The notes under the pieces: model-generated
Seen by the model: only the letters and a program-made list of their open reading frames with translations
Databases searched by the model: none
What the model was told of the DNA's origin: nothing
Part shown: positions 18,629 to 61,516 of the stretch, piece after piece
Layout: each line of letters begins with the position of its first letter
Numbering within the stretch: position 1 is the stretch's first letter
Position numbers and translations under genes: made by a program
From: an uncultured Pelobacter sp.
GTDB lineage: Bacteria; Desulfobacterota; Desulfuromonadia; Geobacterales; Pseudopelobacteraceae
Assembly: GCA_964601865.1 (NCBI GenBank)
Contig: CAZRPI010000001.1
Location: forward strand, 4,625-68,624
Direction: 5' to 3'
Length of the DNA: 64,000 nucleotides

Positions 18629-18662
18629 TGCGGCAAACAACCCGTTGCGCTGGAGAAAAATA

Positions 18663-20784: not shown

Positions 20785-20791
20785 AGCGGAA

Positions 20792-21850: not shown

Positions 21851-22127
21851 AAACAGCTAACTTACCCAGTTCTTTATGAAACAGTCATTGCGAAAAGACC
21901 TGACAGACTCGCAAAATGCCATGGCCACCATAACCAGTTAAAATTATGAGCATATCCCCAAACAAAGGCAAAAAGAGAGCAATCAAAATCATCATGCAGG
22001 CCAGGACTGTTTTGATAAAAGCGCGATAAATGCTTGAGCATGCCGTTGGTACTCAACCAGGAAGGGCCTGCCATGAAGGCATCGTTGATCGCAACCTTTG
22101 TATGAGGGATAGGACCGTAAGAAAAAC

Positions 22128-24099: not shown

Positions 24100-25226
24100 A
24101 GGTAATCACCGTCGTTGGCACCCGCCCTGAAATAATAAAGCTCTCCCGGGTGATATCCGAGCTTGACCGGCACACCGAGCACATCCTGGTTCATACCGGC
24201 CAGAACTTCGACTACGAGCTGAACGAGATTTTCTTCCGGCAGCTCCAGGTCCGCAGACCCGATTATTTCCTGGGTGTCGCCGGAAAAACCGTTGCCGAAA
24301 CCATCGGCAACATCATTGCCCGTTCCGACGAAGTCTTTGCCAGGGAAGAACCGGATGCCATGCTGCTGCTGGGTGACACCAACAGTTCGCTCTCCGTGAT
24401 CCCCGCCAAACGGCGCAAGATTCCCATTTTTCACATGGAAGCCGGAAACCGCTGTTTCGACCTGAGGGTCCCCGAAGAGATCAACCGCAAGATCGTCGAC
24501 CACACAAGCGACATCAACCTGGTCTTTTCCGAACACGCCAGGCGCTATCTGATCGCGGAGGGAATACGCCCGGAAACCATCATCAAGACAGGCTCTCCGA
24601 TGCGTGAGGTGCTGGAGTATTACCTCCCGTCAATTGAGCGATCCCCCATACTGGAAGAGCTGCGACTCGAACCCGGCGGTTTTTTCGTCATCAGCGCGCA
24701 CCGCGAGGAAAACGTCGACAGCGAGCAGAACCTTTCGGACCTGCTGGCCTCCATTGACGCCCTGGCGGAGCATTATGGCCTACCGCTGATCGTCTCCACC
24801 CACCCCCGCACGAGAAAACGTCTCGACGAACGCGGGCTGGGCGCCGCCAACAAGCTGGTTAGCTTCCTCAAGCCGCTCGGATTCCTCGATTACGTCAAGC
24901 TGGAACTCAACGCGCGCTGTATCGTATCCGACAGCGGTACGATCACCGAAGAGGCTTCCATACTCGGCCTGCCGGCGGTCACCATCCGGCAGGCCCATGA
25001 ACGGCCGGAGGGAATGGACGAGGCCACCCTGATCATGTGCGGACTGAAGCCGGAAAGGGTACTGGAGGCGGTGGCAACGGTTGTCGCACATGCCGCGGGC
25101 GGCGGACGTCCTTTCAGAATGGCGCCTGATTACGAGGCGGACAACGTATCAAAAAAAGTTATGCGGATTATCATGAGTTATACCGATTATATAAACCGGA
25201 CGGTGTGGCGGAGGAATATGGCATAA
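24096..25226 (+). CDS. UDP-N-acetylglucosamine-type 2-epimerase, non-hydrolysing (FnlC/WbjD/WbvD-like)
   Basis: Begins MKVITVVGTRPEIIKLSRV...HTGQNFDYELNEIFF...GDTNSSLS...IPIFHMEAGNRCFD.RVPEEINRKIVDH. ATGA overlap with the upstream gene. Confidence 0.9.
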   Translation: MKVITVVGTRPEIIKLSRVISELDRHTEHILVHTGQNFDYELNEIFFRQLQVRRPDYFLGVAGKTVAETIGNIIARSDEVFAREEPDAMLLLGDTNSSLSVIPAKRRKIPIFHMEAGNRCFDLRVPEEINRKIVDHTSDINLVFSEHARRYLIAEGIRPETIIKTGSPMREVLEYYLPSIERSPILEELRLEPGGFFVISAHREENVDSEQNLSDLLASIDALAEHYGLPLIVSTHPRTRKRLDERGLGAANKLVSFLKPLGFLDYVKLELNARCIVSDSGTITEEASILGLPAVTIRQAHERPEGMDEATLIMCGLKPERVLEAVATVVAHAAGGGRPFRMAPDYEADNVSKKVMRIIMSYTDYINRTVWRRNMA

Positions 25227-26131
25227 TGAGCAATCTCAACATCAGACAGCAACTACCACCCATAACGCCCAAACCCGACCATAACTATGTGGCTTTTTTC
25301 CTCAGCCTTGCCTGCAACCTCAGATGCAACTACTGCATAAATCTGCACGACCATCTTTCCCGACCGGAACAGGCAAGACGCAACTCCATGTCCGCAGACG
25401 ACTGGATTACCGCGGCAAACCGCCTGTTATTACGCGCCGACCTGCCCCTCACGCTGCAGGGGGGCGAGCCGACCTTGCACCAGGGGTTCTACCGGATCGT
25501 CAATGAGGTCAGGCCTGAGATCAAAATGGACCTCATGACCAACCTGATGTTCGATGTTGATCGCTTCATCGCCAATGTCCCCACTTGGCGATTCACCCGG
25601 GATGCCCCTTACGCCGCCATCCGTGTCAGCTACCATCCGGGCCAGAACAACATCGACGACCTGATTGCAAAAACGCGGAAACTGGAAGACGCCGGATTCA
25701 GGATCGGACTATACGGCATCGAACACCCTGATCCCGAAATCCTGCGTCACGTCAGGGAAACTCAGGAACGCTGCCTCTCGCTTGGACTTGATTTCAGGAC
25801 AAAAGAGTACCTCGGAGAGCACTCGGGAAGGATGTACGGGACCTTCAAATATCCGGACTGCGTTAACAACTCCGAACTGAAGCGATGTCAGTGCCGGACC
25901 ACGGAGATCATTGCCGATCCGGCCGGATACGTTTACAAATGCCACGCCGATCTCTACAAAGGCCGGACACCCATCGCCCACATCCTGGACGACGCTTTTT
26001 CAGAAGAAACGATCGATGAATTCAGGGAATGTTCTTCCTACGGTGACTGCAATCCCTGTGATGTCAAGGTAAAGACCAACCGTTTCCAGATATTCGGACA
26101 TACCAGCGTGGAGATTCGCGACATTCAATGA
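25226..26131 (+). CDS. radical SAM protein (CNLRCNYC)
   Basis: CxxxCxxC at residues ~30-37, GGEPTL and a Cys-rich C-terminus (CQC...C...CSSYGDCNPC). TAATG overlap with the upstream gene. Confidence 0.8.
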   Translation: MSNLNIRQQLPPITPKPDHNYVAFFLSLACNLRCNYCINLHDHLSRPEQARRNSMSADDWITAANRLLLRADLPLTLQGGEPTLHQGFYRIVNEVRPEIKMDLMTNLMFDVDRFIANVPTWRFTRDAPYAAIRVSYHPGQNNIDDLIAKTRKLEDAGFRIGLYGIEHPDPEILRHVRETQERCLSLGLDFRTKEYLGEHSGRMYGTFKYPDCVNNSELKRCQCRTTEIIADPAGYVYKCHADLYKGRTPIAHILDDAFSEETIDEFRECSSYGDCNPCDVKVKTNRFQIFGHTSVEIRDIQ

Positions 26132-27195
26132 GAGCCTATAACTTTGACGGCCACAAACTGATCTACCATCCCGGGCGGGTTCATGAATTCCTGTCCCAGG
26201 GCGATTGTTTTCCGCTCTATATGGAAATCAGTCCCGTGGGCAGATGCAATCACCGATGCCTGTTCTGCGCCTATGACTTCATTGGATACCCGAATCGAAA
26301 GCTGGAAACCGACCTGATGCGCAAACTGTTGGAAGAGCTTGCAGCCACCGGTCTCAAAAGTGTCCTCTTCGCCGGGGAGGGTGAACCACTCCTGCACCCT
26401 GACCTGCCACACCTCGTGCAACATGCAAAAAGCAACGGAATAGATGTCGGCATCTTCACGAACGGACAGCTTCTGACCCCGGAAAAAGCGGAACGGATCA
26501 TTCCTTTCCTGACGTTCCTGCGCTTCAGCTTCAATGGCGGCACACGGGAAGTGTACGCCCGCGTCCATCAGGTTGACCCGAAAGCATACGATACCGTACT
26601 CGCGGCTCTTCACCAGGCAGTTGCCATAAAACATAAACATGGCGTGGCTACCACCATCGGCGTACAATTCGTAGTCATACCGGAAAACCTGTCGTCCCTC
26701 GTTGAAGCCGCGGCCGTGGTAAAATCGGCGGGGGCTGATTATTTTGCCATCAAACCTTTTGTGCATCAGAGTGACCGGCAAGGTTACCGGATGGATAAAC
26801 CACTCGACGCAGAACTTCTCGATGCCTGTCTGGCTGAAGTTGAAACGCTGAATAGCAAGAACTTCAAGGTCATGGCTCGAAGATCCGCCTTTTCCGAATA
26901 CGGTATCCGCCACTATTCCCACTGTTTCGGCACCTCGTTCATATCGGTAATCAATTCCGGCGGCGATGTTGCCTGCTGTCTCCCCTACTGGGATAACCCC
27001 GAATTCGTTTTCGGCAACATCCATGAGCAGTCATTTCGTGAGATCTGGCTGGGAGAACGGCGCAAAACCGTCAAAGCGCTCCTGGAGAAACGTCTCAACG
27101 TGCAGGATTGCCCCCCCAACTGCCGCCCCAATGCGATCAACGATTTTCTGTATGAGCTGAAATATCCGACCCTTGAGCACATAAACTTTATTTAA
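26128..27195 (+). CDS. radical SAM protein, paralogue group A (CNHRCLFC; C-terminus ...HINFI)
   Basis: Contains DGHKLIYHP...GRCNHRCLFCAY..., GEGEPLLHP, FTNG and C-terminal CPPNCRPNAINDFLYELKYPTLEHINFI. ATGA overlap with the upstream gene. Confidence 0.85.
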   Translation: MRAYNFDGHKLIYHPGRVHEFLSQGDCFPLYMEISPVGRCNHRCLFCAYDFIGYPNRKLETDLMRKLLEELAATGLKSVLFAGEGEPLLHPDLPHLVQHAKSNGIDVGIFTNGQLLTPEKAERIIPFLTFLRFSFNGGTREVYARVHQVDPKAYDTVLAALHQAVAIKHKHGVATTIGVQFVVIPENLSSLVEAAAVVKSAGADYFAIKPFVHQSDRQGYRMDKPLDAELLDACLAEVETLNSKNFKVMARRSAFSEYGIRHYSHCFGTSFISVINSGGDVACCLPYWDNPEFVFGNIHEQSFREIWLGERRKTVKALLEKRLNVQDCPPNCRPNAINDFLYELKYPTLEHINFI

Positions 27196-27205
27196 GGATA
27201 CGACG

Positions 27206-28159
27206 ATGCAGACAAAGATACTGATCATTAAGCTGGGTTATTCCGAAACGCTAGACCCGGAAATCGGCAAAGTCCCGAGCCTTGGTGATGTGTTGCGCAC
27301 AACACCCATTCTCTGGGCTCTGCGCGAAAAGTACCCTGACGCCCATATCAGCTGGCTGGTCTCGGAGCATGCCGAGCCGTTGCTGTATCGCAACAGCCAG
27401 ATTGACCGCCTTCTGGTCTGGGACAGCTTTGTCCCGTTTCAGTTGATGAAGGAAAAATTTGATGTACTGATAAACCTGGAAAAAATACCGGGCCTCTGCG
27501 CCCTGAGTGACATGATCGACGCCTGGGTCAAGTACGGTTTCCGCTTCGACTCTCTGTCCGGCAGCTACCACGCCTATGAAAAGGGGCTCGACTTCATAAG
27601 TTATATTGAAGGAAAGCATTCGGACAAGGCCAAAGGTTACTGGCAACAGGTGCTCATTGAAATGCTCGGCATTCCATGGAAGGGACAGGAGTATATCATC
27701 GGATACAAACCGGTGAGCACCGAAATCCATGACATCGGCCTCAACTTCGAAGTGGGCTCGAAATGGCCGGTCAAGGGGATGCCGATGGATCTCTGGCAGC
27801 GGCTGGAACAGCAACTGACTTCTCTCGGCTACAGCGTATCCTGGCAGGAGGGCCGCAAGAACCTCTTTGAATACATGGACTGGATCAATTCCTGCCGCCT
27901 GATAATATCCAATGACAGCCTGGGCCTGCACCTGGCCTTTGGCTTCCATAAAAAGGTGATCGGCCTGTTCGGCCCGACTGATCCAAGCGAGGTCTATTTC
28001 TACACCGGTGGCAAGCTGCTGCGCTCGCCATGCCAGTGCCCGGCCATGCCCTGCTTTGACGTCAAATGCCGCACCGGCCTGATGTGCATGTCGCACTTTG
28101 ATCTTGGCAAAATCATCACAGCCGTTGCGGAAATACGGGGAGAATCAAACACACCATGA
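27206..28159 (+). CDS. glycosyltransferase family 9 (heptosyltransferase-like)
   Basis: Contains KILIIKLGYSETLDPE...LGDVLRTTPILWALREKYPDAHISWLV and C-terminal ISNDSLGLHLA....VIGLFGPTDP. Confidence 0.85.
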   Translation: MQTKILIIKLGYSETLDPEIGKVPSLGDVLRTTPILWALREKYPDAHISWLVSEHAEPLLYRNSQIDRLLVWDSFVPFQLMKEKFDVLINLEKIPGLCALSDMIDAWVKYGFRFDSLSGSYHAYEKGLDFISYIEGKHSDKAKGYWQQVLIEMLGIPWKGQEYIIGYKPVSTEIHDIGLNFEVGSKWPVKGMPMDLWQRLEQQLTSLGYSVSWQEGRKNLFEYMDWINSCRLIISNDSLGLHLAFGFHKKVIGLFGPTDPSEVYFYTGGKLLRSPCQCPAMPCFDVKCRTGLMCMSHFDLGKIITAVAEIRGESNTP

Positions 28160-28938
28160 ACACACGAGAAACCGCGCTCCGCATCCGGCGCACCATAATC
28201 GAGATGGCCAATCGTTCCAAAAGCCCGCATGTCGGCTCCAGCCTCTCCTGCTCCGATATCATGGCGGTACTGTACGACGGCATCCTCAGACTGGAGCCAT
28301 GGGACGAGCGCGACATCTTCATCCTGAGCAAGGGGCACGCGGCCATGTCGCTGTACAGCACTCTGCACGCCAAAGGACTCCTGACGGCAGAGGATATCGA
28401 AGGTTACTACCTGGATAATGGCACCTTACCGGCACATCTTGATCGTCGTCCAGAAAAGGGGATAGAGGTGTCCGCAGGATCGCTGGGACACGGATTCAAC
28501 ATGGGTCTAGGCATGGCCTACGCATTCAAAAAGCAGAAGAGCTTTCGAAAAGTATTTGCGGTTATTGGCGACGGTGAAGCACAAGAGGGCTCCATCTGGG
28601 AAGGAGCCCTGTTCGCAGGCAGGTTCGGGTTGGAAAACTTCACCGCAATCATGGATAACAACAACCTTCAGGGATACGGCCGGCCAAGCGAAATCTGCGC
28701 CTTTGAACCGATGAGGGACAAGTGGATCTCGTTCGGATGGCATGCCATTGAAGTCGATGGACATGACCACGATGAGTTGCGCAACGCCCTACGGGCGGAA
28801 TCGCGCGGAAAACCAAAGATCCTGATTGCCCGCACCATCAAAGGAAAGGGAGTCTCTTTCATGGAAGACCAGCTGATCTGGCATTACTACATTGTCACCG
28901 ACGAACACAAACGGCAAGCTTTGGATGAGCTGTCATGA
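28156..28938 (+). CDS. transketolase, N-terminal (ThDP-binding) subunit
   Basis: Contains HVGSSLSCSDI..., LSKGHAA, GSLGHGFNMGLGMA and GDGEAQEGSIWEGA (ThDP motif GDG...E). 260 aa split form. Confidence 0.9.
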   Translation: MNTRETALRIRRTIIEMANRSKSPHVGSSLSCSDIMAVLYDGILRLEPWDERDIFILSKGHAAMSLYSTLHAKGLLTAEDIEGYYLDNGTLPAHLDRRPEKGIEVSAGSLGHGFNMGLGMAYAFKKQKSFRKVFAVIGDGEAQEGSIWEGALFAGRFGLENFTAIMDNNNLQGYGRPSEICAFEPMRDKWISFGWHAIEVDGHDHDELRNALRAESRGKPKILIARTIKGKGVSFMEDQLIWHYYIVTDEHKRQALDELS

Positions 28939-29855
28939 GGAACTCCTTCATCAATACCATTCTCGATGCCTGCAGACAACGGGAGGACATCTTTGTCATC
29001 AGCGGCGACGCCGGCCTGGGTGTATTTGACACCTTCAAGGAGGAATACCCTGACCGTTTCCTCAACCTGGGAGCCGCCGAACAGAACATGATCAGTTTTG
29101 CCGCCGGGATGTCCATGACCGGCTACAAGGTGCTTGTTTACAACATCATACCTTTTGTCCTTTACCGCTGCTACGAGCAGGTGCGTAACGATATCTGTTA
29201 TCAGGACCTGCCGATTATTCTGGCCGGCATCGGCAGTGGACTGACCTATTCACCCCAGGGAATGACCCACTACTCCATAGAAGATCTGAGCCTCGCCCGT
29301 ACACTCCCGAACCTGACCGTCTTGTCCCCAATTGACCCTGTTGAGGCAAGAGTGGCAGCCAATTATGCCCTATCCGCAGCCGCACCGGTATATGTCAGGC
29401 TTGCCAAGCGTGGCGAACCGGATATCCACACGACACAACAGCTTGATATAAGCGTGCCGCAACAACTGGTCACGGGCGATATTCCGGTCGCCCTTCTCTG
29501 TCATGGTTCCATTGGGGAGGAGGTTCTGCAAGCGGCCCGGATACTGTCCGAAGATGGCATCAGGCCCTTCGTGTTTTCGGTGCCAATGGTACAGCCACTC
29601 AATCGTGACACTTTACTCAGTTGCCTGAAAGGGATGCGGTCAGTGGTTTCGGTTGAAGAGCATTATCATTCCTGCGGCCTGGGCGCGGCCGTGAGGGAAA
29701 GTATCATGGACTCCTCTCTATCCTGCTCTCTCACCACCTTGGGATTACCATCCCGTTTCATCCATGAAGTCCACGACACGGCAGGAATGAGAAAACTGTT
29801 CGGGATTGATGCCGATTCGATTGCTTCTACTGTCAGATCGCAGTTGAGAGGTTGA
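28935..29855 (+). CDS. transketolase, C-terminal (pyrimidine-binding) subunit
   Basis: Contains GDAGLGVFDTFKEEYPDRFLNLGAAEQNMISFAAGM... and HYSIEDLSL.RTLPNLTVLSP.D. ATGA overlap with the N-terminal subunit. Confidence 0.9.
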   Translation: MRNSFINTILDACRQREDIFVISGDAGLGVFDTFKEEYPDRFLNLGAAEQNMISFAAGMSMTGYKVLVYNIIPFVLYRCYEQVRNDICYQDLPIILAGIGSGLTYSPQGMTHYSIEDLSLARTLPNLTVLSPIDPVEARVAANYALSAAAPVYVRLAKRGEPDIHTTQQLDISVPQQLVTGDIPVALLCHGSIGEEVLQAARILSEDGIRPFVFSVPMVQPLNRDTLLSCLKGMRSVVSVEEHYHSCGLGAAVRESIMDSSLSCSLTTLGLPSRFIHEVHDTAGMRKLFGIDADSIASTVRSQLRG

Positions 29856-29857
29856 AC

Positions 29858-30520
29858 ATGGGAAAATTAAGAAATTATTTTACGCCTCTTCATACCAGTA
29901 CGAAACGTGACTATCTCTCACGCATGTGTGATGCCAAAGTCGAGTGCATGCGAGTTGCCAAAAGATACGGGTCTGAGTTCTGGGATGGTGAGCGGCGGTA
30001 CGGATATGGAGGCTTCAAGTATGACGGCAGATGGAAACCGGTCGCCGAACGTTTAATCGAAGATTACGGACTGGCCGGGAACTGCTCGATCCTTGACATA
30101 GGTTGCGGCAAGGGATTCCTGTTGTATGAACTCCATCAGTTACTACCGGAAGCACGTATTGCCGGGTTTGATATTTCAGAGTATGCCATCAACAACGCGA
30201 AGGATGAGATCCGTCACAACATCTTCCTGCACCGGGCTCAGGATCCGCTTCCCTATAAAGATCATGAGTTCGACCTGGCTATCTCGCTTACCACCCTCCA
30301 CAATCTGCACCTGCCAGACCTGAAGGCCGCCCTGATGGAAATGGAACGGGTCGGCAGGCAGAAATATCTGGTTGTGGAGGGATACCGGAATGAGGAAGAG
30401 CTGTTTAACCTGCAGTGCTGGGCGCTGACCTGCGCCGCCTTCTTCACACCAGAGGAATGGATGTGGCTGTTTGGCCAGTTTGGTTACAGCGGGGACTACG
30501 AGTTTGTGTATTTCGACTGA
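29858..30520 (+). CDS. class I SAM-dependent methyltransferase
   Basis: Motif I is ILDIGCGKGFLL. Also GFDISEYAINNAK and DLAISLTTLHNL. Confidence 0.85.
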   Translation: MGKLRNYFTPLHTSTKRDYLSRMCDAKVECMRVAKRYGSEFWDGERRYGYGGFKYDGRWKPVAERLIEDYGLAGNCSILDIGCGKGFLLYELHQLLPEARIAGFDISEYAINNAKDEIRHNIFLHRAQDPLPYKDHEFDLAISLTTLHNLHLPDLKAALMEMERVGRQKYLVVEGYRNEEELFNLQCWALTCAAFFTPEEWMWLFGQFGYSGDYEFVYFD

Positions 30521-30538
30521 TCGTTCCAGGAGAGAGTA

Positions 30539-31609
30539 ATGGGGTTGCTCTACACCCGCATGAAAATATTCCACTTCAACGCCAAGCTTGATTCACTCCA
30601 GCCAAGTTCCGGGGGTATCCTTCCGCCGCTCAACGTACGCATCAAACCGACCAATGCCTGCAACCATAACTGCTGGTATTGCGCCTACCGTGCGGAAAAT
30701 CTGCAACTTGGACAGGATATGAACCAGAAGGATTCCATACCGCGGGACAAGATGCTGGAGATCATCGATGATCTGATGGCAATGGAAGTGAAGGCGGTTA
30801 CCTTCAGCGGCGGGGGCGACCCGTTCTGTTATCCGCACCTGTTGGAAACGGTGCAAAAACTGGCCGCAACTCCGATCAAATTTGCCGCGCTTACTAATGG
30901 TTCACGCCTGACCGGCGAAGTCGCGGAAGTTTTTGCCAAACACGCCACCTGGTTGCGAGTCTCCATGGACGGCTGGGACAACGCCAGCTACCGTGAGTAC
31001 CGCGGATGTTCCGATGGGGAGTTCACCAACATCATCCGCAATATGGAACAGTTCAAAAAAATTGGTGGGAAGTGTTATCTGGGAGTCTGTATCGTTGTTG
31101 ATAACAATAACTACGAGCATATCTACGATTTGATCCAACTCCTGCACGCAACCGGAGTCAACAGCGTCAAGGTCTCACCCTGCATCGTCAGCAACAGTTG
31201 TGACGACAATTATAACTACCACGTTCCGCTTTTTGATTCGGTAAAAGAGCAGACCCTGCGGGCACAGCAGGAGTTCACCGGGGAAGGCTTTGAACTGTAT
31301 GATGCCTACCATTACCAACTGGGAACATTTGCCAAAGATTATTCATGGTGTCCCTACCTTCAGATTGTCCCGGTCATCGGCGCCGACCTGAATATCTACT
31401 CTTGCCACGACAAGGCATACAACCTTGCGGAAGGATTGCTGGGTTCAATCACAGACACACGGTTCCGTGATTTCTGGTTCTCCGACAAGAGGCGGTTTTA
31501 CCGAATTAATCCGAGACGAGACTGCAACCATCATTGTGTTGTTGACAGCAATAATCGTATGGTTCTGGAATATCTGAATGTTGACGAAAACCATCGGGAG
31601 TTTTTGTAA
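30539..31609 (+). CDS. radical SAM protein, paralogue group A-like (CNHNCWYC; C-terminus ...HREFL)
   Basis: Contains KPTNACNHNCWYCAY, FSGGGDPF, LTNG and a C-terminal CNHHCVVDSNNRMVLEYLNVDENHREFL. AGGAGAG lies upstream of the ATG. Confidence 0.85.
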   Translation: MGLLYTRMKIFHFNAKLDSLQPSSGGILPPLNVRIKPTNACNHNCWYCAYRAENLQLGQDMNQKDSIPRDKMLEIIDDLMAMEVKAVTFSGGGDPFCYPHLLETVQKLAATPIKFAALTNGSRLTGEVAEVFAKHATWLRVSMDGWDNASYREYRGCSDGEFTNIIRNMEQFKKIGGKCYLGVCIVVDNNNYEHIYDLIQLLHATGVNSVKVSPCIVSNSCDDNYNYHVPLFDSVKEQTLRAQQEFTGEGFELYDAYHYQLGTFAKDYSWCPYLQIVPVIGADLNIYSCHDKAYNLAEGLLGSITDTRFRDFWFSDKRRFYRINPRRDCNHHCVVDSNNRMVLEYLNVDENHREFL

Positions 31610-31612
31610 TCA

Positions 31613-32491
31613 ATGAGTATGCCCCCCCAAAAAGTGCTTGTCTTCGGAAGTACCGGCAAACTTGGATCAGCTCTAACAGCTGCATTCGCAACGGCCTCGT
31701 ACATGGTCATTCCGCTTAATCGCTCCGAGTGCGATGTCAATGACCATGCTCAGGTGCATTGCAAAGTCAAACAAATACGGCCCGACATTGTTATCAACGC
31801 CATAGCCTTCAACGGCATCGACGCCTGCGAAGCAAGTCCGCAACAGGCACTGGCAATCAACACCCTTTTCCCCAAACTGCTGGCCGAACTCTCGCAAATA
31901 TATTCTTTTTTACTCGTACACATCAGCAGTGACGCGGTCTTCAGCGGCACACAGGGGGGGTATTTCAAGGAAACGAGTATCGCAGCCCCCATCAATTTGT
32001 ACGGCTTTACCAAGTTTGGCGGGGATTGTTTCGTGAGCGCCATTGCCAAACGCCATTACATTACCCGGATTTCGGTGCAGTTCGGGCCTACCCCCGGAAA
32101 GGCCCAGTTTATCGAGAAAATGCTGGAACGGATCCGGCATGGCGCAGATCATCTGCAAGTATCCGACGATATTATTGCTTCTCCCAGCTACAGCAGGGAT
32201 GTCGCTGAACGCATCAGGACCCTTGTTGATGAACGGAGTCCCTTTGGGTTGTACCACATTGCAAATGAGGGGAAGGCTTCACTTTATGAACTGGTGAAGG
32301 AACTTGTTCGAATCATGGAGTGGGGTGTTGTGGTAGTACCGGTTCCCCACAGTACATTCCCATCACAGGGTATCAAAAACACCTATACCCCCATCCGGTC
32401 GGAAAGAATTGCGCCTTTGCGCCCCTGGCGTGATGCATTGATGGCATATTGCCGGGAAGCACTGATAGACAAAGGAAGGATAGATGGCTGA
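31613..32491 (+). CDS. RmlD-family sugar 4-ketoreductase (dTDP-4-dehydrorhamnose reductase-like), second copy
   Basis: Contains VLVFGSTGKLGSAL..., VINAIAFNGID and HISSDAVFSG...YGFTKFGGD. Confidence 0.85.
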   Translation: MSMPPQKVLVFGSTGKLGSALTAAFATASYMVIPLNRSECDVNDHAQVHCKVKQIRPDIVINAIAFNGIDACEASPQQALAINTLFPKLLAELSQIYSFLLVHISSDAVFSGTQGGYFKETSIAAPINLYGFTKFGGDCFVSAIAKRHYITRISVQFGPTPGKAQFIEKMLERIRHGADHLQVSDDIIASPSYSRDVAERIRTLVDERSPFGLYHIANEGKASLYELVKELVRIMEWGVVVVPVPHSTFPSQGIKNTYTPIRSERIAPLRPWRDALMAYCREALIDKGRIDG

Positions 32492-33575
32492 TACAACATA
32501 TCGCATGGATGGACATAAGCTATACTGGCATCTCGATCGGGTCAACGACTGGATGAACGGCAAAAGGATAGCGCCGTTGCATATCGATGTCGGTTTGAGC
32601 AAGGGATGCAACATCAGATGCCATTACTGTTTCGGGGTTGTTCAGGGAAACCGCTACCAGGAAGGCAAAGAGATCTTTTTTGCGCGTGAACCGCTGTTGA
32701 ATTATGTCCGGGAGGCAGGCGAAGTCGGTGTCAGATCCATGGCAATCATAGGCGAAGCCGAACCGCTTCTCAATCCCCACGCATATGAGGCAATCATTGC
32801 CGGCAAGAAATCGGGGGTCGATATGGCGCTCGGCACCAACGGCATCCTGTTCGACACCGGAAATAGCGGGCAGAAGGCGCTGGAGCATCTTACCTGGTTG
32901 CGCTTCAATATCAGCGCAGCCTCGCAACAATCGTATCAGCGCCTTCACAACAGTCCCGACTTCGCTACCCTTTTGGAAAAAATAAGGTTCTGCCTTGACA
33001 CCAAGCGCAAAAACAATCTGCCGGTAACCATCGGATTCCAGATGGTCTTAACGCCACAGGATATAGACGAGGTGTTACCATTGACCCGTCTTGCCAAAGA
33101 ACTGGGAGTGGATTATCTGGAAATCAAACATTGCGGAGACACGGTAAAAAATGACCTGGGCATTTTCAATAAACTCGGCATGTATGATCAGTTCAGGGAA
33201 ATCCTGCTGCGGGCAGAACAGGAATCGACCGATACGTTCAGGGTTATTGTAAAATGGGGCAACATCACTCGCAAAGGGAAACGCGCCTATAACTGCTGTC
33301 TCGGCGCCCCCTTCCTGCTCTATTCCAGCGGTGACGGCAAGCTGTATCCCTGCGGCATGTTCTTTTCCTACCGTGAGCCTGAGTTCTGTCTCGGAGACCT
33401 GAACCGGCAATCATTCAAGTCAATCGTTGAAAGCGATGCGTACTGGAATACCATGAAGAAAATCCAGACTGACATCAGGGTGCATGAAGAATGCTACGCC
33501 AGCTGCAAAACCAATGCGATCAATGAGTTCTTGTACACCCTGATCAATCCTCCGCAACATATCAACTTCATCTAG
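32484..33575 (+). CDS. radical SAM protein, paralogue group A (CNIRCHYC; C-terminus ...HINFI)
   Basis: Contains DGHKLYWHL...KGCNIRCHYCFG..., GEAEPLLNP, GTNG and CYASCKTNAINEFLYTLINPPQHINFI. It is clearly paralogous to 26128-27195. Confidence 0.85.
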   Translation: MADTTYRMDGHKLYWHLDRVNDWMNGKRIAPLHIDVGLSKGCNIRCHYCFGVVQGNRYQEGKEIFFAREPLLNYVREAGEVGVRSMAIIGEAEPLLNPHAYEAIIAGKKSGVDMALGTNGILFDTGNSGQKALEHLTWLRFNISAASQQSYQRLHNSPDFATLLEKIRFCLDTKRKNNLPVTIGFQMVLTPQDIDEVLPLTRLAKELGVDYLEIKHCGDTVKNDLGIFNKLGMYDQFREILLRAEQESTDTFRVIVKWGNITRKGKRAYNCCLGAPFLLYSSGDGKLYPCGMFFSYREPEFCLGDLNRQSFKSIVESDAYWNTMKKIQTDIRVHEECYASCKTNAINEFLYTLINPPQHINFI

Positions 33576-33586
33576 GAGTATGCATA

Positions 33587-34243
33587 ATGGAAGACAAATA
33601 TATCAGCGAGCATATTGAGTACAGGGATGAAGAACGCATCCGCCTGGGAATGATGTCAAGCCATCGCTGGAGGATGGACCCCAAGGTGCTGCTGTTCTCA
33701 ATGGCCCGATATAAATTCATCGCAAAGATGCTGACAGGAAAAAATGAGGTGCTCGAAGTCGGTTGCGGAGACGGCTGGGGGGCCAACATTGTCGTGCGAG
33801 AAGTTGGCTCAATCTTATGCGTAGATATGGACCCGGTCCTGGTCAAAGAATGCGAAGAGTTGAAAACCGACGACCGGATATCCTTTGCCCGGCATGATCT
33901 GCGCAAAGCACCCGTTAAACCTGCGCGCGATGCGGTATATCTGCTTGATGTGCTGGAACATCTGGAAAAAGAGGATGAAGATATTTTTTTGAGAAACATC
34001 GCGGCATCAATAACAGCAGACGGTATCTGCATTGTGGGCATCCCCAGCCTGGAAAGTCAGGAATACGCCTCCAAGCCGAGTCGCGCCACCCATGTTAACT
34101 GCAAAAGCGGCAATGACCTGAAACAGACCCTTGAGAAATATTTCAGGAATGTCTTCCTGTTCAGCATGAACGATGAAGTTGTGCATACCGGCTTTACCAA
34201 GATGGCCCACTACCTGCTGTGTCTCTGCGTCGGAGTGCGCTAG
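33587..34243 (+). CDS. class I SAM-dependent methyltransferase
   Basis: Contains VLEVGCGDGWGANI..., AVYLLDVLEHL and GICIVGIP. Confidence 0.8.
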   Translation: MEDKYISEHIEYRDEERIRLGMMSSHRWRMDPKVLLFSMARYKFIAKMLTGKNEVLEVGCGDGWGANIVVREVGSILCVDMDPVLVKECEELKTDDRISFARHDLRKAPVKPARDAVYLLDVLEHLEKEDEDIFLRNIAASITADGICIVGIPSLESQEYASKPSRATHVNCKSGNDLKQTLEKYFRNVFLFSMNDEVVHTGFTKMAHYLLCLCVGVR

Positions 34244-34247
34244 GCCG

Positions 34248-34658
34248 ATGCACTGCGTCGCCCTGATCGTTCTGTATGATGACCGGCAGGACGTTTTGCT
34301 TCAGCACCGGACTGATGATGCTCACCTTTTCCCCGGCCACTGGGCTTTTTTCGGCGGAAGCTGTGAATCCGATGAAACACCGCTCGAAGCGGTTATCCGG
34401 GAAACGGAGGAGGAACTCTGCTACCGCCTGACTTCTCCCCGACTTGTCATGGAACAGCCGTTTTCAGTAAATGGTCTTGAATGCTTGATGTACCTGTATG
34501 TTGAGCAGCACCACGGCGATAAGAGCATGTTGCGATTGTGCGAGGGACAGGGGTGGGGATGGTTTGGAGCTGGCGAAACCGAAAAACTCCTGATGACGGA
34601 GCATGATCGTTCCGCACTGCGTGTCGCACGAAACTTTATATCCGGACAAACACAATGA
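34248..34658 (+). CDS. Nudix hydrolase
   Basis: The Nudix box is GGSCESDETPLEAVIRETEEELCY. The start ATG 34248 lies just after the upstream stop. Confidence 0.85.
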   Translation: MHCVALIVLYDDRQDVLLQHRTDDAHLFPGHWAFFGGSCESDETPLEAVIRETEEELCYRLTSPRLVMEQPFSVNGLECLMYLYVEQHHGDKSMLRLCEGQGWGWFGAGETEKLLMTEHDRSALRVARNFISGQTQ

Positions 34659-36127
34659 ACATCCACCCCCTATCAATGGATCAGCAGCAGTCTTTACGCG
34701 GCCAGCCCAAGCGGCTTCTGCTCGCCTATCCCAATATGCGCTGGCATAAAGAGGACAGCGTAACGCTCTGGAATCTTGATCCAACAGCACTCTGCCTGTT
34801 GGCTGCAACGGTCAGAGACCTGGTGGAGATCAAGATCCTTGACGCCCAGTTTCACAACCTGGACAGGGACACGTTCAAGCGACAGATTGCCGACTATCAA
34901 CCGGATTACGTCGGCCTGTCACTGCTGACCAGTGAGTATGAAGAAGCTTTGTACGGAGCTGCCCGGCTCGTTAAGGAAGTCAATCCTGATATCACGGTGA
35001 TTGCCGGTGGCGTCCATGTTACGACCATGCCTGACCATGTCATGGAGACGTGCGAGGCCATCGATTACTGCGTCATTGGCGAGGGGGAACATGTTCTGCG
35101 GGAACTGATACGCTATCTTCAGGGAACAGACGCTTTACCGAAGTCAGGCCTTGCCTATCGCAGCGGCAATGTAATCATACAGAAGCAGGCAATAGTTGAC
35201 AACCTGTCGGAACTTCCCTGGCCAGCCTACGATCTGGTCGATTTTTCCGCCTACATTCAAAAACCGCAACGGGGCTTCACCTCCAATCAACCGCCTGCAT
35301 ACCCCTATGTGCGGATGGTAACAACCCGTGGCTGCCCCTTCGGATGCACTTTCTGCCAGGTTGAAACCATAGCGGGGCGTCGGGTGAGAACCCGTGACCC
35401 GGTGGACGTCGTCAATGAGCTGGAATTCCTGAAAGAACGTTACGGCATCCGCTCCATCGTATTTGATGAAGACAACATCCTGTTGGGAGAGAACGACTAT
35501 GCACGTCGGCTTTTCCGCGAAATGAGCGACCGAAAGCTGAACCTTCCCTGGATCGCGTCGGCGTTTGCGCTCTTTCTGATAACCGATGACCTGCTTGCCC
35601 TGATGAAAGAATCGGGATGCGTCGGTATCAACGTCGCCATCGAATCGGGCAATGAGCGTGTCTTGAAGGAAATTATCCACAAACCGATAAAAAATCTTCA
35701 AGCCATACCGGACATAATCGCCAGGGTTCAGGCGCAGGGAATTTACTGCATCGCCAATTTCATAGTCGGATTTCCCGGCGAAACCTGGAATGAAATTCGT
35801 GAGACAATTGCCTTTGCGGAACAATGTGGCGCGGATTATGTCAAGATTTACGCGGCAGTGCCACTGTACAGGACCAAGCTCTATTATCTGGCAAAGGAAA
35901 AGGGATTGCTGCTCTGCAACGATGAAATCCCCAAGGTTGATTGGCGCTACGGCCAGATTACTTCCGATGAGTGGACGGCAAAGGATATCAGCATCCTCAG
36001 GGTTTACGAGTGGGATCGAATCAACTTTGCGCCCCATAAGATAAAACGTTTGATTGAAATCACCGGAGCGACCGAAGAAGAGTTAAACGCTGTGCGGAAG
36101 AACACAAGGGATAACCTAACTTGGTGA
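34655..36127 (+). CDS. B12-binding-domain radical SAM enzyme (class B, methyltransferase-like)
   Basis: N-terminal Rossmann-like LLLAYPN...GLSLLTSEY...VIAGGVHVT, then TTRGCPFGCTFCQV. 490 aa. ATGA overlap with the Nudix gene. Confidence 0.88.
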   Translation: MNIHPLSMDQQQSLRGQPKRLLLAYPNMRWHKEDSVTLWNLDPTALCLLAATVRDLVEIKILDAQFHNLDRDTFKRQIADYQPDYVGLSLLTSEYEEALYGAARLVKEVNPDITVIAGGVHVTTMPDHVMETCEAIDYCVIGEGEHVLRELIRYLQGTDALPKSGLAYRSGNVIIQKQAIVDNLSELPWPAYDLVDFSAYIQKPQRGFTSNQPPAYPYVRMVTTRGCPFGCTFCQVETIAGRRVRTRDPVDVVNELEFLKERYGIRSIVFDEDNILLGENDYARRLFREMSDRKLNLPWIASAFALFLITDDLLALMKESGCVGINVAIESGNERVLKEIIHKPIKNLQAIPDIIARVQAQGIYCIANFIVGFPGETWNEIRETIAFAEQCGADYVKIYAAVPLYRTKLYYLAKEKGLLLCNDEIPKVDWRYGQITSDEWTAKDISILRVYEWDRINFAPHKIKRLIEITGATEEELNAVRKNTRDNLTW

Positions 36128-36162
36128 TTTAACGGCACATCACACTTCAACAAGGTAATGTA

Positions 36163-37326
36163 ATGACCACACAGAATAGAGATTTCCTTACCCCGGCTCA
36201 TCCACTTTCTTCGCTAAACTTCATGTTTACGGAAAAATGCAACCTTCGGTGTGTATATTGTCCCAAATACTCAGCAACAGATACAAGTGGCCATATTTCG
36301 CAGACACTCCTTGAATATATAATTGAATACATAAAGAGCAATCATATCAAATCGGCAGGTGTTGGCTTCTATGGGGAGACCTTTTGTTTTCCAGGATGGG
36401 AGCGATATGCCGGAGAACTGGTCAATGCTGGTGTGGACATGTCAATATGCTCAAACTGGAATCACAAGCTGTCTGACAACCAAATAGGGGTGTTGAGCAG
36501 ATTCAAGCTTATCCAGTTCAGCATCGACACTACAAATCCTGACTTACTACGCACAATTCGCCCCCCAGCAGACCTTAAAACCATATTATTCAACATGCAT
36601 CTAATACGCAGCAGGACTATTCTTGATCGTGTACAGCACCCGATTTTCATGTGGTGCAGCGTATTAAGTCACAAGATAATACCCTACTTATCGGACTTTG
36701 TTGCCATGGCAATTTCCAATGGCGTGAAGCATATAAATTTCAACGAACTGGAGTATTACGAAGATTCCAGCCATGAACTCAAAAGTGTTTTTGACCTTGA
36801 AAACATGGAATTTGTTGTCGCTGCAGACGAGATTCTCAAAATGGATTTGCTGGCCAAAAGTTATGGCATTGAAATCACCTATGCGTTCAACTCATTCCTG
36901 GATGTTATCAGGACAAGGAAGCAGCAAATATTATCCGGCAGCAATGACAGCATGTCCAACACTGTCTGCAGACTACCGTTACAAGGGATTCAAGGCATTT
37001 CAAGCCACTTGACATTACCCTCAACATCTTTACCACCTCATGGCAATAATACGCATACCAGATTATGTTTGCAGCCTTGGACTACGGCTTACATCCTTGC
37101 CAATGGCACGGTCTGCAGCTGTTGCGTAAGGGGTGAGAGCATGGGGAGAATATCCGCTGATACAAATCTTGATGATATTTTGAACAACAATAAATATAGA
37201 GAGCTCAGATGGCGTCTGTTAACGGGGAATATTGTCGATAACGCCTGCCTGGCCTGTCCTGTCACGCCAATCGTTGAAAAATCAATCCTGCATGAGTCTT
37301 TGCTGCAATCCCTTATTCGCACATGA
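36163..37326 (+). CDS. radical SAM / SPASM-domain protein
   Basis: Contains FTEKCNLRCVYCPK and a C-terminal SPASM-like region CLQPWTTAYILANGTVCSCCVRG...NACLACP. Confidence 0.85.
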   Translation: MTTQNRDFLTPAHPLSSLNFMFTEKCNLRCVYCPKYSATDTSGHISQTLLEYIIEYIKSNHIKSAGVGFYGETFCFPGWERYAGELVNAGVDMSICSNWNHKLSDNQIGVLSRFKLIQFSIDTTNPDLLRTIRPPADLKTILFNMHLIRSRTILDRVQHPIFMWCSVLSHKIIPYLSDFVAMAISNGVKHINFNELEYYEDSSHELKSVFDLENMEFVVAADEILKMDLLAKSYGIEITYAFNSFLDVIRTRKQQILSGSNDSMSNTVCRLPLQGIQGISSHLTLPSTSLPPHGNNTHTRLCLQPWTTAYILANGTVCSCCVRGESMGRISADTNLDDILNNNKYRELRWRLLTGNIVDNACLACPVTPIVEKSILHESLLQSLIRT

Positions 37327-38346: not shown

Positions 38347-38353
38347 TAACGCC

Positions 38354-39451: not shown

Positions 39452-39615
39452 TATTTAGAAACATATTCGCTGGCAGCAAGCTGTTGCCGGACTTTTGGCC
39501 GGTCTTTCATCACAGTATTTTTCACAATCATCGGATATAAAACACTTGAGCGGCAGGGTCAAGCCAGCCATATCAATGTCATTTCAACAACCAAAGAATT
39601 CAAACACAATATCTT

Positions 39616-42036: not shown

Positions 42037-42041
42037 TCAAC

Positions 42042-49051: not shown

Positions 49052-49127
49052 AATGGTTTGATTCGCCGATGGGACTGATATACATTTCTTAGAAACACTT
49101 TTCGCACGTTCATTCTAGGAGACCGAT

Positions 49128-61374: not shown

Positions 61375-61432
61375 AACTCATTTTTTTAATATTTCTCGGT
61401 TCAATTCTGATATATTCTGATAGCGGATAGCC

Positions 61433-61459: not shown

Positions 61460-61516
61460 AGAAAAATAGCATAAACTGCTATCTCATGACGATTTAATTC
61501 GCACGGGAGAGATGTC

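Follow-up and report, generated by a model that had tools for sequence, protein, structure and literature searches.

The window, by which we mean the whole 64,000-nt stretch of DNA that was analysed, holds a block of thirteen genes between positions 25226 and 37326, all on the + strand. The genes of the block are as follows:

25226..26131, +, rS1, a 301-aa radical-SAM protein (C30/C34/C37) with a Cys-rich C-terminal region (PF04055)
26128..27195, +, rS2, a 355-aa radical-SAM enzyme with a DesII/BlsE-like fold (Pfam Radical_SAM and SPASM)
27206..28159, +, glycosyltransferase-like protein of GT9 fold (GT-B) whose C-terminal Cys cluster is conserved (PF01075, 40.8 bits)
28156..28938, +, TKN, the N-terminal (ThDP/PP-domain) half of a split transketolase-like enzyme (PF00456, 115.9 bits)
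28935..29855, +, TKC, the pyrimidine-binding and C-terminal half of the split transketolase-like enzyme (PF02779, PF02780)
29858..30520, +, MT1, a 220-aa class I SAM methyltransferase (Methyltransf_31/25/11)
30539..31609, +, rS3, a 356-aa radical-SAM enzyme, paralogue of rS2 and rS4 (PF04055, 78.8 bits)
31613..32491, +, RmlD-type NDP-4-keto-sugar reductase-like SDR (PF04321, 196.8 bits)
32484..33575, +, rS4, a 363-aa radical-SAM enzyme, closest paralogue of rS2 (Radical_SAM and SPASM)
33587..34243, +, MT2, a class I SAM methyltransferase (Methyltransf_11/25)
34248..34658, +, Nudix hydrolase, 136 aa (PF00293, 57.1 bits)
34655..36127, +, B12rS, class B, a cobalamin-binding domain with radical SAM (PF02310, 74.9 bits; PF04055, 87.2 bits)
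36163..37326, +, rS5, a radical-SAM/SPASM protein that opens a lower-GC extension module (SPASM, 38.4 bits; Radical_SAM, 36.6 bits)

A check of the window's ORFs found all thirteen at these coordinates, and reading the junctions directly verified the head-to-tail arrangement that the first-pass annotation had described. The last upstream gene and rS1 overlap by 1 nt at 25226 (TAATG), ATGA overlaps of 4 nt lie at 26128, 28156, 28935 and 34655, the overlap at 32484 is 8 nt, and the remaining gaps are all 35 nt or less. Two starts were taken from the metagenome gene call, namely 34248 for the Nudix protein (ORF start 34173) and 29858 for MT1 (ORF start 29852). Since there was no intergenic terminator-like site within the block, and counts of promoter-like and terminator-like sites lay within about 1.3 sd of those in shuffled sequences, co-transcription is a plausible prediction. 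The first twelve genes have a GC content of 0.50-0.54, compared with 0.43 for the thirteenth (rS5; GC 0.434, GC3 0.479).

Six of the thirteen genes encode radical-SAM proteins, one of them B12-dependent, and all carry the CxxxCxxC motif. HMM searches found the radical-SAM, SPASM and B12-binding domains, in agreement with the five enzymes plus a sixth, class B enzyme counted from the letters alone, and Pfam matches likewise agreed with the interleaved GT9, split transketolase, RmlD, methyltransferase and Nudix assignments. SPASM had been assigned only to the last radical-SAM protein; in fact four of the five that are not B12-dependent carry SPASM/twitch domains. None of the six proteins reached a curated NCBIfam cutoff. 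The paralogues rS2, rS3 and rS4 each have three plus four conserved cysteines. In rS2, which has 1499 homologues at E≤1e-10, all seven are invariant among 81 sequences, and C266/C284/C328/C332 would ligate one auxiliary cluster. rS4 aligns with rS2 over its full length (27% identity, E 7e-47) and conserves Cys 42/46/49 and 272/290/337/341 as well as C217; rS3 (E 9e-26 to rS2 in BLASTP, with a sub-threshold Pfam SPASM match besides Radical_SAM) conserves Cys 41/45/48 and 271/289/329/333 together with C179 and C215. The 120 listed of the 2270 rS3 homologues are 62-82% identical to it and 349-366 aa long, most of them exactly 356. rS1 matches PF04055 weakly (32.3 bits against a Pfam cutoff of 29.5), and among 33 homologues its CxxxCxxC motif is 94% conserved, C183 91%, and C223, C239, C269, C275 and C278 97%. 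rS5 had no PDB sequence match and belongs to a smaller family of 101 clusters at E≤1e-30.

The best Foldseek matches of the AF2 model of rS2 (pLDDT 85.8) were DesII (8hzv, E 2e-16) and BlsE (7vob, 5e-14), enzymes whose substrates are sugar nucleotides and sugar nucleosides; the likeness is moderate, with TM 0.66-0.69 and 18% identity. DesII was also the sole match of rS4 in a PDB sequence search. For B12rS the top PDB sequence matches were AprD4 (6fd2, 3e-16), an aminoglycoside-sugar enzyme, and TokK, and the closest NCBIfam model was the Sden_1168 P-methyltransferase family (185 bits; cutoff 575). If these enzymes instead cross-linked or otherwise modified a peptide or protein, for example flagellin itself, SPASM domains would be expected, as they are typical of peptide maturases, and RiPP maturases do rank close behind in the rS2 Foldseek list (SkfB, SuiB and anSME, E 5e-14 to 5e-12). 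However, DesII and BlsE outrank RiPP maturases, MoaA and viperin in both sequence and fold, and RiPP-maturase NCBIfam models gave the radical-SAM proteins only 20-65 bits against cutoffs of 340-855. A precursor peptide gene cannot fit into gaps this short, a protease or exporter is absent, and the tightly linked partners are a transketolase, an RmlD-like reductase, a GT9 protein and a Nudix hydrolase. We therefore regard a maturation locus as very unlikely. Both the fold and the neighbouring genes favour sugar chemistry over RiPP or cofactor chemistry, as had been proposed from the letters.

For the split transketolase, the closest PDB entries are the Carboxydothermus split transketolase 6yak for TKN (E 1e-60) and 6yaj for TKC (E 3e-38). 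TKN retains the catalytic His residues and the GDGE and NN..Q motifs (Mg/ThDP), and TKC the Glu of AEQN and the His of TH(Y/H). In nearly all of 30 cassette homologues, however, the phosphate-binding Ser of TKC is replaced (DxxxST to DAGLGV), as are the phosphate-binding His (THAG to IGSG) and the Asp of GEDG that reads the C2-OH (to PQG/xLG). Judged from these residues, the substrate pocket appears altered: the pair keeps its cofactor and catalytic residues and has lost the canonical sugar-phosphate-binding ones. Among the other tailoring proteins, the RmlD-like reductase scored 186.5 bits against TIGR01214, below the cutoff of 224, and the Nudix protein, which reached no NCBIfam cutoff, was nearest to MutT-like proteins, unlike known NDP-sugar hydrolase types.

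PF01075 covers only the C-terminal part of the protein at 27206, and its AF2 model (pLDDT 78) confirmed a GT9 fold, with Foldseek matches to the GT9 protein 3tov, WaaC, WaaF and TibC. C278, C283, C288 and C294 are invariant in 26 close homologues and 50-90% conserved across a wider set. The 120 listed of 2220 homologues are 64-89% identical, unusually conserved for a transferase, so the protein may act inside the pathway instead of as the final transferase. The same conservation, the four C-terminal cysteines and the match to the iron-binding protein heptosyltransferase TibC would also be consistent with tailoring after assembly, in which the GT9-fold enzyme installs a first sugar (e.g. heptose from ADP-heptose) that the radical-SAM enzymes, methyltransferases and transketolase-like enzyme remodel in place on a protein, lipid carrier or polymer. 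TPR proteins alongside the cassette in Geobacteraceae, and a block that contains no sugar-1-phosphate nucleotidyltransferase, fit this as well. We nevertheless consider it unlikely: the closest fold relatives of rS2 use small nucleotide- or nucleoside-linked sugars, an RmlD-type reductase with DegT/4,6-dehydratase neighbours is what one usually sees in soluble NDP-sugar pathways, and a polymer-bound substrate would leave little sense for a Nudix hydrolase.

The block is embedded in a same-strand glycosylation island of about 40 kb that ends near a flagellin gene. Its surroundings in the window are:

18645..25226, +, six nucleotide-sugar genes (Pfam, NCBIfam): a 4,6-dehydratase-like SDR, a PseC/DesI-like aminotransferase, a weak GT8 match, an RmlD-like reductase, a PseB/FnlA-like dehydratase and a WecB-type 2-epimerase
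37348..40989, +, extension (Pfam, NCBIfam): hyp332 (without family), an FkbM methyltransferase and a 457-aa TPR protein (GC 0.39-0.45)
41041..53979, +, five assembly proteins (domain matches): a Methyltransf_24 protein, a 1659-aa GT2x3+GT1 protein, a 677-aa GT2x2 protein, a TPR protein and a 1267-aa GT2x3+TPR protein
55478..56383, -, flagellin, 301 aa (Flagellin_N and Flagellin_C; NCBIfam flagellin subfamilies each below cutoff)
56498..62722, a TPR-GT41 protein (+), a 990-aa TPR-GT9 protein (-) and a 401-aa TPR protein (+) (domain matches)

Only WecB among the upstream genes passed a curated cutoff (224.5 against 210 bits). The window shows no candidate acceptor protein other than flagellin.

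The gene order recurs in other genomes, so the arrangement is more than chance. Geotalea daltonii FRC-32, whose genome is complete, has the first twelve genes in identical order (61-89% identity), and a 1-Mb metagenome contig (L091) keeps the order from TKN through rS5, which again directly follows B12rS, and on through hyp332-FkbM-TPR (28-61% identity for this extension). A decayed, silent or wrongly assembled cluster, with a radical-SAM density that has no functional meaning, might be suspected of a metagenome contig, yet every ORF is intact with its catalytic motifs kept, the order is shared with the complete genome of an isolate and with independent assemblies, and identities of 60-90% between the proteins of different genera imply purifying selection. 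Synteny and conservation have already largely refuted this explanation, and we give it almost no weight.

The thirteen genes had been taken as one unit; across 81 loci we observed modular recombination instead, and the block is a mosaic of recurrent modules shuffled between genomes: rS1-rS2-GT9, TKN-TKC-MT1-rS3, RmlD-rS4-MT2-Nudix-B12rS, and the lower-GC rS5-hyp332-FkbM-TPR. rS1 adjoins rS2 in 24 of 46 full-length loci; MT1 (41-83% identity) is nearly always directly upstream of rS3 and in most loci behind TKC; MT2 co-occurs with rS4 and B12rS in five loci (L008, L021, L022, L090 and L091). Nor is the cassette peculiar to this locus. In a collection with a single genome for each species, a scan confirmed rS2 relatives at 516 places in several bacterial phyla and some archaea, mostly in anaerobic hosts, with 3-7 radical-SAM genes per 21 kb as the usual density. 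The cassette occurs in DPANN archaea, Methanoperedens, Omnitrophota, an anammox planctomycete and Parcubacteria. Homologues of the 401-aa TPR protein (39-42% identity) adjoin it in L003, L025, L088 and L090, lying directly upstream of rS1 in Geobacteraceae. The link to flagellin stands in this window, where 18 kb separate the cassette from the flagellin gene on the opposite strand, but no other fetched locus has a flagellin within 10 kb of the cassette.

Sugar genes accompany the cassette elsewhere too. Of the 46 full-length loci, 16 have a dehydratase-like SDR close by and 10 have a DegT aminotransferase, FnlB-like and FnlC-like genes adjoin it in L018 and L034, and in Citrifermentans bremense NDP-hexose C-methyltransferases, a CMP-NulO synthetase and NeuB lie downstream. 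Beside the G. daltonii cassette there are no counterparts of the upstream FnlABC-like and DegT genes; the entry substrate is thus not fixed by context. These neighbourhoods bear on whether the product might be a diffusible small molecule, such as an aminoglycoside-, cyclitol- or nucleoside-like secondary metabolite or a cofactor, and no surface glycan. The characterised relatives DesII, BlsE, BtrN and AprD4 all come from antibiotic pathways, MoaA and viperin are among the matches, and the Nudix protein is MutT-like. Against this, the window and the inspected Geobacteraceae loci show large multi-domain GT2/GT1/TPR proteins and NDP-sugar genes, resistance, export, PKS and NRPS genes were not found nearby in the window, and the cassette is present in DPANN archaea and Parcubacteria with small genomes. 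We think a diffusible product improbable.

The best reading is a nucleotide-sugar-type pathway for a rare modified sugar within a surface-glycosylation island that is not flagellin-specific. It is reasonably probable that this modular, widespread cassette serves the anaerobic making and tailoring of a rare, heavily modified sugar for a surface glycoconjugate, by chemistry that we infer as follows. The upstream dehydratase and aminotransferase genes would convert an NDP-hexose or UDP-HexNAc to 4-keto or 4-amino-6-deoxy intermediates, from which rS2, rS3 and rS4, with one auxiliary Fe-S cluster each, may abstract ring hydrogens, leading to redox-neutral deamination or dehydration, epimerisation, or oxidation. 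The transketolase-like ThDP enzyme, its cofactor/donor half intact and its sugar-phosphate pocket remodelled, could then join a two-carbon ketol unit to a carbonyl acceptor that bears no phosphate, making the sugar either branched or longer in its chain. The RmlD-like reductase would fix a keto group, MT1 and MT2 would add O- or N-methyl groups, and B12rS might place a C-methyl at an unactivated carbon. The Nudix hydrolase would trim or recycle a nucleotide-linked intermediate, and the GT9-fold enzyme would transfer the product. Module swapping between genomes would diversify the final sugar.

The underlying observation is thus confirmed and the earlier interpretation partly supported. The cassette has no match among characterised pathways, and full-text literature searches found no description of it, in keeping with the proposal of an undescribed pathway. 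The accompanying claim that characterised pathways never use more than one radical-SAM step goes too far for secondary-metabolite sugars, since the gentamicin and pactamycin pathways each contain several. For characterised cell-surface glycan pathways it is, to our knowledge, still a fair statement.

All thirteen open reading frames that the first-pass annotation had placed between window positions 25226 and 37326 were found, on the plus strand, and the gene content claimed for this block (six radical SAM (rSAM) enzymes, a GT9, a split transketolase (TK), an RmlD-type SDR, two methyltransferases and a Nudix hydrolase) was backed by Pfam. The gene junctions were also as described, with a 1-nt TAATG overlap at 25226, 4-nt ATGA overlaps at 26128, 28156, 28935 and 34655, and an 8-nt overlap at 32484, and the remaining gaps in the block did not exceed 35 nt.

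Genes of the block in order, each assigned by Pfam (window positions)
Start 25226, plus strand: rS1, rSAM enzyme
Start 26128, plus strand: rS2, rSAM enzyme
27206-28159, plus strand: GT9-like protein
Start 28156, plus strand: TKN, N-half of the split transketolase
28935-29855, plus strand: TKC, C-half of the split transketolase
Start 29858 (metagenome gene call), plus strand: MT1, class I methyltransferase
Start 30539, plus strand: rS3, rSAM enzyme
Start 31613, plus strand: RmlD-type SDR
Start 32484, plus strand: rS4, rSAM enzyme
Next in order, plus strand: MT2, second class I methyltransferase of the block
Start 34248 (metagenome gene call), plus strand: Nudix hydrolase
Start 34655, plus strand: B12rS, B12-binding class B rSAM enzyme
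Start 36163, plus strand: rS5, rSAM enzyme

Since a terminator scan found no intergenic terminator-like site in the block, and promoter and terminator counts there were near chance and uninformative, the predicted co-transcription of these genes is plausible. Searching the window for Rfam families and tRNA genes gave no match. The block forms the middle of a ~40-kb same-strand island (14324-53979). Upstream of it lie genes for GT1-like proteins, a 4,6-dehydratase-like SDR, a PseC/DesI-like aminotransferase, an RmlD-like reductase, a PseB/FnlA-like 4,6-dehydratase and a WecB-type 2-epimerase. Downstream follow a 332-aa protein without family (hyp332), an FkbM methyltransferase, a TPR protein and a Methyltransf_24 protein, and further on three very large multi-domain GT2/GT1/TPR proteins. 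Unusually large multi-domain enzymes are encoded at 15860-18628 (a 922-aa GT1-like/methyltransferase fusion), 42042-47021 (1659 aa, three GT2 domains and a GT1), 47018-49051 (677 aa, two GT2 domains) and 50176-53979 (1267 aa, three GT2 domains and TPR). Also upstream of the glycosylation island are a MASE8-GGDEF diguanylate cyclase (3938-5176) and a HAMP histidine kinase/sigma-54 response-regulator pair (11267-14134), which are possible candidates for island regulators. Near the start of the window a 764-aa plus-strand frame (1389-3683) overlaps a minus-strand frame (1902-3815). The latter is probably the real gene, because it encodes an MFS transporter-acyltransferase fusion and the plus-strand frame has no family match.

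We sought the closest relatives of the six rSAM proteins at the level of sequence, domain and fold. All six passed PF04055 (32.3 to 87.2 bits against a cutoff of 29.5) and carried CxxxCxxC motifs that were conserved in homologues. The narrow margin of rS1 (32.3 bits) was accompanied by conservation of its motif in 33 homologues. The SPASM domain, previously noted for the last rSAM gene only, proved to be more widely distributed, with PF13186 scoring above cutoff in rS2, rS4 and rS5 and weakly, below cutoff, in rS3. Pairwise comparison identified rS2, rS3 and rS4 as paralogues (E 7e-47 for rS2 with rS4, 9e-26 for rS2 with rS3), and rS2 and rS4 had N- and C-terminal motifs in common that were conserved across both families. 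Because each of these three proteins contains four invariant C-terminal cysteines in addition to the rSAM triad, the sequences suggest one auxiliary Fe-S cluster in each. Additional conserved cysteines are present in rS3 (C179, C215) and rS4 (C217) and lacking in rS2; by analogy with rSAM epimerases they could serve as hydrogen donors.

None of the six (0/6) reached a curated NCBIfam cutoff. The DesII family TIGR04426 (cutoff 450 bits) gave 49.4 for rS2 and 36.4 for rS4, the BlsE family TIGR04466 (cutoff 400) gave 44.1 for rS2 and 39.8 for rS3, and the best scores for viperin (NF038283, cutoff 180) and MoaA (TIGR02666, cutoff 284) were 67 and 53.5 bits, both from rS3. The best PDB sequence relatives were BlsE, DesII, MoaA and BtrN for rS2, BlsE for rS3 and DesII alone for rS4; the search returned a marginal match for rS1 and none for rS5. 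Structure prediction and structural search, which the first-pass annotation had proposed, gave a DesII/BlsE-like result for rS2 and a GT9 fold for the GT9-like protein. For the AlphaFold model of rS2 (pLDDT 85.8), the best structural match was DesII (E 2e-16, TM 0.66-0.69), with BlsE second and SkfB, SuiB, anSME, MoaA and viperin behind. Judged from this model, the predicted likeness of rS2 and rS4 to DesII is one of fold only. Sugar nucleotides or nucleosides are the substrates of the nearest relatives of these rSAM enzymes. B12rS carries an N-terminal B12-binding domain (PF02310, 74.9 bits against 32.1) fused to the rSAM core (PF04055, 87.2 bits) and is a predicted class B cobalamin-dependent enzyme. 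Its best PDB sequence matches were AprD4, TokK and TsrM-type enzymes, the first two being closest, and it reached no curated family (185 against 575 bits for Sden_1168, 69 against 500 for AprD4). In terms of sequence families, rS1 to rS5 are five predicted non-B12 rSAM families with no curated assignment, four of which repeatedly accompany the rS2 family in different phyla. We also considered whether the block might mature a RiPP or another protein. RiPP-maturase families (PapB, StsB, SkfB, SCIFF and others) scored 20-65 bits against cutoffs of 340-855, and gaps of at most 35 nt leave no space for a precursor gene, which upheld the initial view that this is not a RiPP locus. The RiPP reading was rejected on both counts, and RiPP or protein maturation taken together is very improbable.

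In the protein collection, 1499 sequences matched the rS2 family (E<=1e-10), and scanning one genome per species confirmed relatives at no fewer than 516 places. The rS3 (2270 matches) and GT9 (2220 matches) families were as large, and among the best 120 of each they were strikingly conserved, with 62-82% identity and 349-366 aa (mostly exactly 356) for rS3 and 64-89% identity for GT9. The loci that we fetched, the best 80 among genomes with rS2 and rS3 families, came from Geobacteraceae, Nitrospirota, Planctomycetota (including Candidatus Brocadia), Omnitrophota, Campylobacterota (Helicobacter valdiviensis), Desulfovibrio and Parcubacteria among the bacteria, and from DPANN and Methanoperedens among the archaea. 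Mapping the window proteins onto these loci revealed three recurrent modules, whose combination differs between genomes.

Modules recurrent in the fetched loci
Module A: rS1-rS2-GT9
Module B: TKN-TKC-MT1-rS3
Module C: RmlD-rS4-MT2-(Nudix)-B12rS

In Geotalea daltonii FRC-32, whose genome is complete, the first 12 genes all occur in window order at 61-89% identity (CP001390.1, about 741-752 kb), with a carbamoyltransferase in place of rS5 after the run. Citrifermentans bremense has modules A and B followed by NDP-hexose C-methyltransferases, an SDR, a long B12-rSAM, a CMP-nonulosonate synthetase and NeuB. The 13 genes are a mosaic of modules and do not form one unit. A silent cluster or an artefact is contradicted by this synteny and conservation, and we give that explanation almost no weight. 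Among 46 full-length loci we counted 1 to 7 rSAM genes per 21 kb (median ~4), with seven in about 15 kb in Geobacter sp. OR-1. Dense radical chemistry is thus the rule around the rS2 family and is not peculiar to the window contig.

A ~38%-identical 359-aa paralogue takes the place of rS2 in C. bremense and Geobacter sp. OR-1, whose other cassette genes show 47-77% identity to those of the window. The cassette may diversify at this position, and such replacement, combined with the exchange of modules, suggests how the final sugar could be varied. GC content was ~0.57-0.61 in most flanks, 0.50-0.54 in the first 12 block genes, and 0.39-0.45 (GC3 0.37-0.48) in rS5, hyp332, FkbM and the 457-aa TPR gene (36163-40989); the drop across the block is consistent with a horizontally acquired island, and the closest genomes to the window, itself a metagenome contig, are Geobacteraceae. 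The low GC, and the absence of rS5 beside rS2 elsewhere, had raised the possibility that rS5 is a later insertion foreign to the block. This was weakened by a 1-Mb metagenome contig (L091), which keeps the order TKN through B12rS-rS5-hyp332-FkbM-TPR, followed by large GTs. Because low GC coincides with the same four genes after B12rS in L091, rS5-hyp332-FkbM-TPR looks like a separately acquired yet recurrent extension module. The hyp332 frame (37348-38346) has no Pfam or NCBIfam match and has a 57% identical counterpart at the same position in L091.

The cassette had been read in the context of flagellin glycosylation, and the window does contain a flagellin gene, 18 kb downstream and on the opposite strand.

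55478-56383, minus strand: flagellin, 301 aa, flanked by TPR-GT41 and TPR-GT9 (990 aa) proteins

The two neighbours are candidate flagellin (protein) glycosyltransferases of TPR-GT type. Their genes, at 56498-58417 (plus strand) and 58402-61374 (minus strand), are convergent with a 16-nt overlap, and a 200-aa frame without Pfam or NCBIfam match (54797-55399, minus strand) adjoins the flagellin gene. In none of the other fetched loci did a flagellin gene lie 10 kb or less from the cassette. The flagellin context is thus local to the window. A further gene, for a 401-aa TPR protein (61517-62722), lies 25 kb from the cassette in the window, and its homologues (39-42% identity) are directly upstream of rS1 in four loci, from Geotalea daltonii, G. 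toluenoxydans, Citrifermentans bremense and a Geobacteraceae MAG (L003, L025, L088 and L090).

We then compared the split TK with canonical enzymes residue by residue. TKN keeps the ThDP/Mg motifs GDGE and NN..Q and the catalytic His residues, with equivalents of E. coli H26, H66, H100 and H261 present in the split enzyme, and TKC keeps the cofactor-activating Glu of AEQN and the His of TH(Y/H). The window TKC, like nearly all of 30 cassette homologues, has Gly, Gly and Gln/Leu where E. coli has Ser385, His461 and Asp469. We take Ser385 and His461 to bind the sugar phosphate and Asp469 (GEDG) to read the acceptor C2-OH. Because these three residues are replaced while the ThDP/Mg, His and Glu residues are kept, the split TK looks as though its donor and cofactor machinery were intact and the canonical sugar-phosphate pocket gone, and cassette TKC is classed, from its sequence, as a distinct TK-like subfamily. 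An ordinary pentose-phosphate transketolase was rejected, since the substrate residues are replaced and the genes are tightly linked to MT1 and rS3. Transfer of a C2 unit in sugar or natural-product tailoring is a plausible role by analogy. The block SDR scored 196.8 bits for the Pfam domain RmlD_sub_bind and 186.5 bits for TIGR01214 (dTDP-4-dehydrorhamnose reductase, cutoff 224); because it has the domain and falls short of the family, we classify it by sequence as a RmlD-like reductase and not an RmlD orthologue.

The GT9-like protein scored 40.8 bits for PF01075 (cutoff 22) and 44-47 bits for the WaaC, WaaF and WaaQ heptosyltransferase equivalogs of NCBIfam, whose cutoffs are 135-185. Its AlphaFold model (pLDDT 78) matched 3tov, WaaC, WaaF and TibC, that is, a GT-B/GT9 fold. 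Four C-terminal cysteines (C278, C283, C288, C294), invariant among close homologues, suggest a putative metal or Fe-S site. TibC is an iron-containing protein heptosyltransferase, and the four-Cys cluster recalls, by analogy, its metal site. Because conservation is very high and one 536-aa homologue is fused to a HAD phosphatase, a role of GT9 inside the pathway is hinted at. The same conservation, the TibC-like hint and the lack of a nucleotidyltransferase in the block would also fit tailoring on the glycan or protein after a first transfer by GT9, a possibility that we consider unlikely.

Taken as a whole, the cassette probably makes and tailors a rare, heavily modified surface-glycan sugar under anoxic conditions; for each single step our confidence is much lower than for this general statement. 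Because a dehydratase was found near 16 of the 46 loci and an aminotransferase near 10, we infer that the entry compound would be an NDP-6-deoxy-4-keto or 4-amino sugar. The DesII-like rSAMs could deaminate, dehydrate, epimerise or oxidise it without oxygen or NAD, the TK-like enzyme could put a two-carbon ketol unit on a non-phosphorylated carbonyl, and the RmlD-like reductase could reduce a keto group. MT1 and MT2 would provide O or N methylation and the class B enzyme carbon methylation, and the GT9-fold enzyme would transfer the product. A diffusible aminoglycoside- or nucleoside-like metabolite is improbable, given the GT/TPR context of the cassette and its occurrence in small-genome DPANN and Parcubacteria. 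A bolder and less likely reading is that the cassette would be a widespread, hitherto overlooked pathway by which anaerobes make sugars of a new class, C-methylated and either branched or chain-extended. Here the DesII-like rSAMs would create or move carbonyls without NAD or O2, the remodelled TK would place a two-carbon unit on a non-phosphorylated, nucleotide-linked or free sugar, and the exchange of modules would diversify surface glycans in many lineages of bacteria and archaea. If this holds, four or more functional rSAM families and one transketolase activity would be new to glycobiology.

What is already known are the superfamilies of the individual folds and the overall kind of locus, a rare-sugar tailoring cluster in a glycosylation island. 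We found no description of the cassette in full-text literature, which lay mostly outside subscription journals, so that this absence is not proof; a paper on the Kuenenia S-layer glycan makes no mention of radical SAM or a gene cluster. The altered split TK, the Cys4 GT9 and their conserved association were likewise in no curated NCBIfam family and in none of this mostly non-subscription literature. The undescribed sugar-tailoring pathway of the first-pass annotation stands as a candidate. The feature itself is real, widespread and uncharacterised. To our knowledge, surface glycans have hardly been explored in strict anaerobes and uncultured lineages, and radical-SAM sugar chemistry has so far come mainly from a handful of antibiotic pathways. 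The cassette, with 5-6 rSAM enzymes, an atypical TK and a GT9 with a putative metal site, recurs widely in bacterial phyla and in some archaea, and cultured strains of Geotalea and Citrifermentans are among its carriers. It therefore points to new sugar structures and several enzyme activities to assign, testable in available isolates. It also makes rSAM-dense glycan loci a common feature of anaerobes and not a one-contig curiosity.

Several known systems resemble parts of the cassette. Flagellin glycosylation islands are described in Campylobacter, Pseudomonas and Caulobacter (with FlmG-type TPR-glycosyltransferases), and we know of none, and found none, with rSAM enzymes or a transketolase. 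The window resembles them in its flagellin gene with flanking TPR-glycosyltransferase fusions and the long sugar-biosynthesis run nearby, and differs in that Maf and NeuB genes are absent from the window and that the cassette lacks flagellin linkage in the other fetched loci. The split transketolase of Carboxydothermus hydrogenoformans (6yaj/6yak) is likewise a two-subunit enzyme with the ThDP/Mg, His and Glu residues kept, whereas cassette TKC has the phosphate-binding Ser and His and the C2-OH-reading Asp replaced. YerE, a ThDP-dependent two-carbon branching enzyme, belongs to another ThDP enzyme lineage, and the two-component TK-like QncN/QncL differ in that the cassette has no lipoyl or ACP partner. 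B12rS resembles class B methyltransferases and AprD4 in its N-terminal B12-binding domain and rSAM core. BlsE, an rSAM decarboxylase (PMC3715490) acting as cytosylglucuronate decarboxylase, and BtrN (2-deoxy-scyllo-inosamine dehydrogenase) are likewise twitch-type rSAM enzymes of small size; each has one auxiliary cluster and works on a sugar or cyclitol ring. DesII, the TDP-4-amino-4,6-dideoxy-D-glucose ammonia-lyase of the desosamine pathway, is an rSAM enzyme on an NDP-sugar, as is proposed for rS2 and rS4, and the DesI/PseC-like aminotransferase and 4,6-dehydratase-like SDR upstream in the window extend the likeness to context. It differs in sequence (18% identity), in size (~470-490 aa) and in belonging to a macrolide-sugar pathway that has no other rSAM enzyme, whereas the window carries three paralogues in a surface-glycan island.
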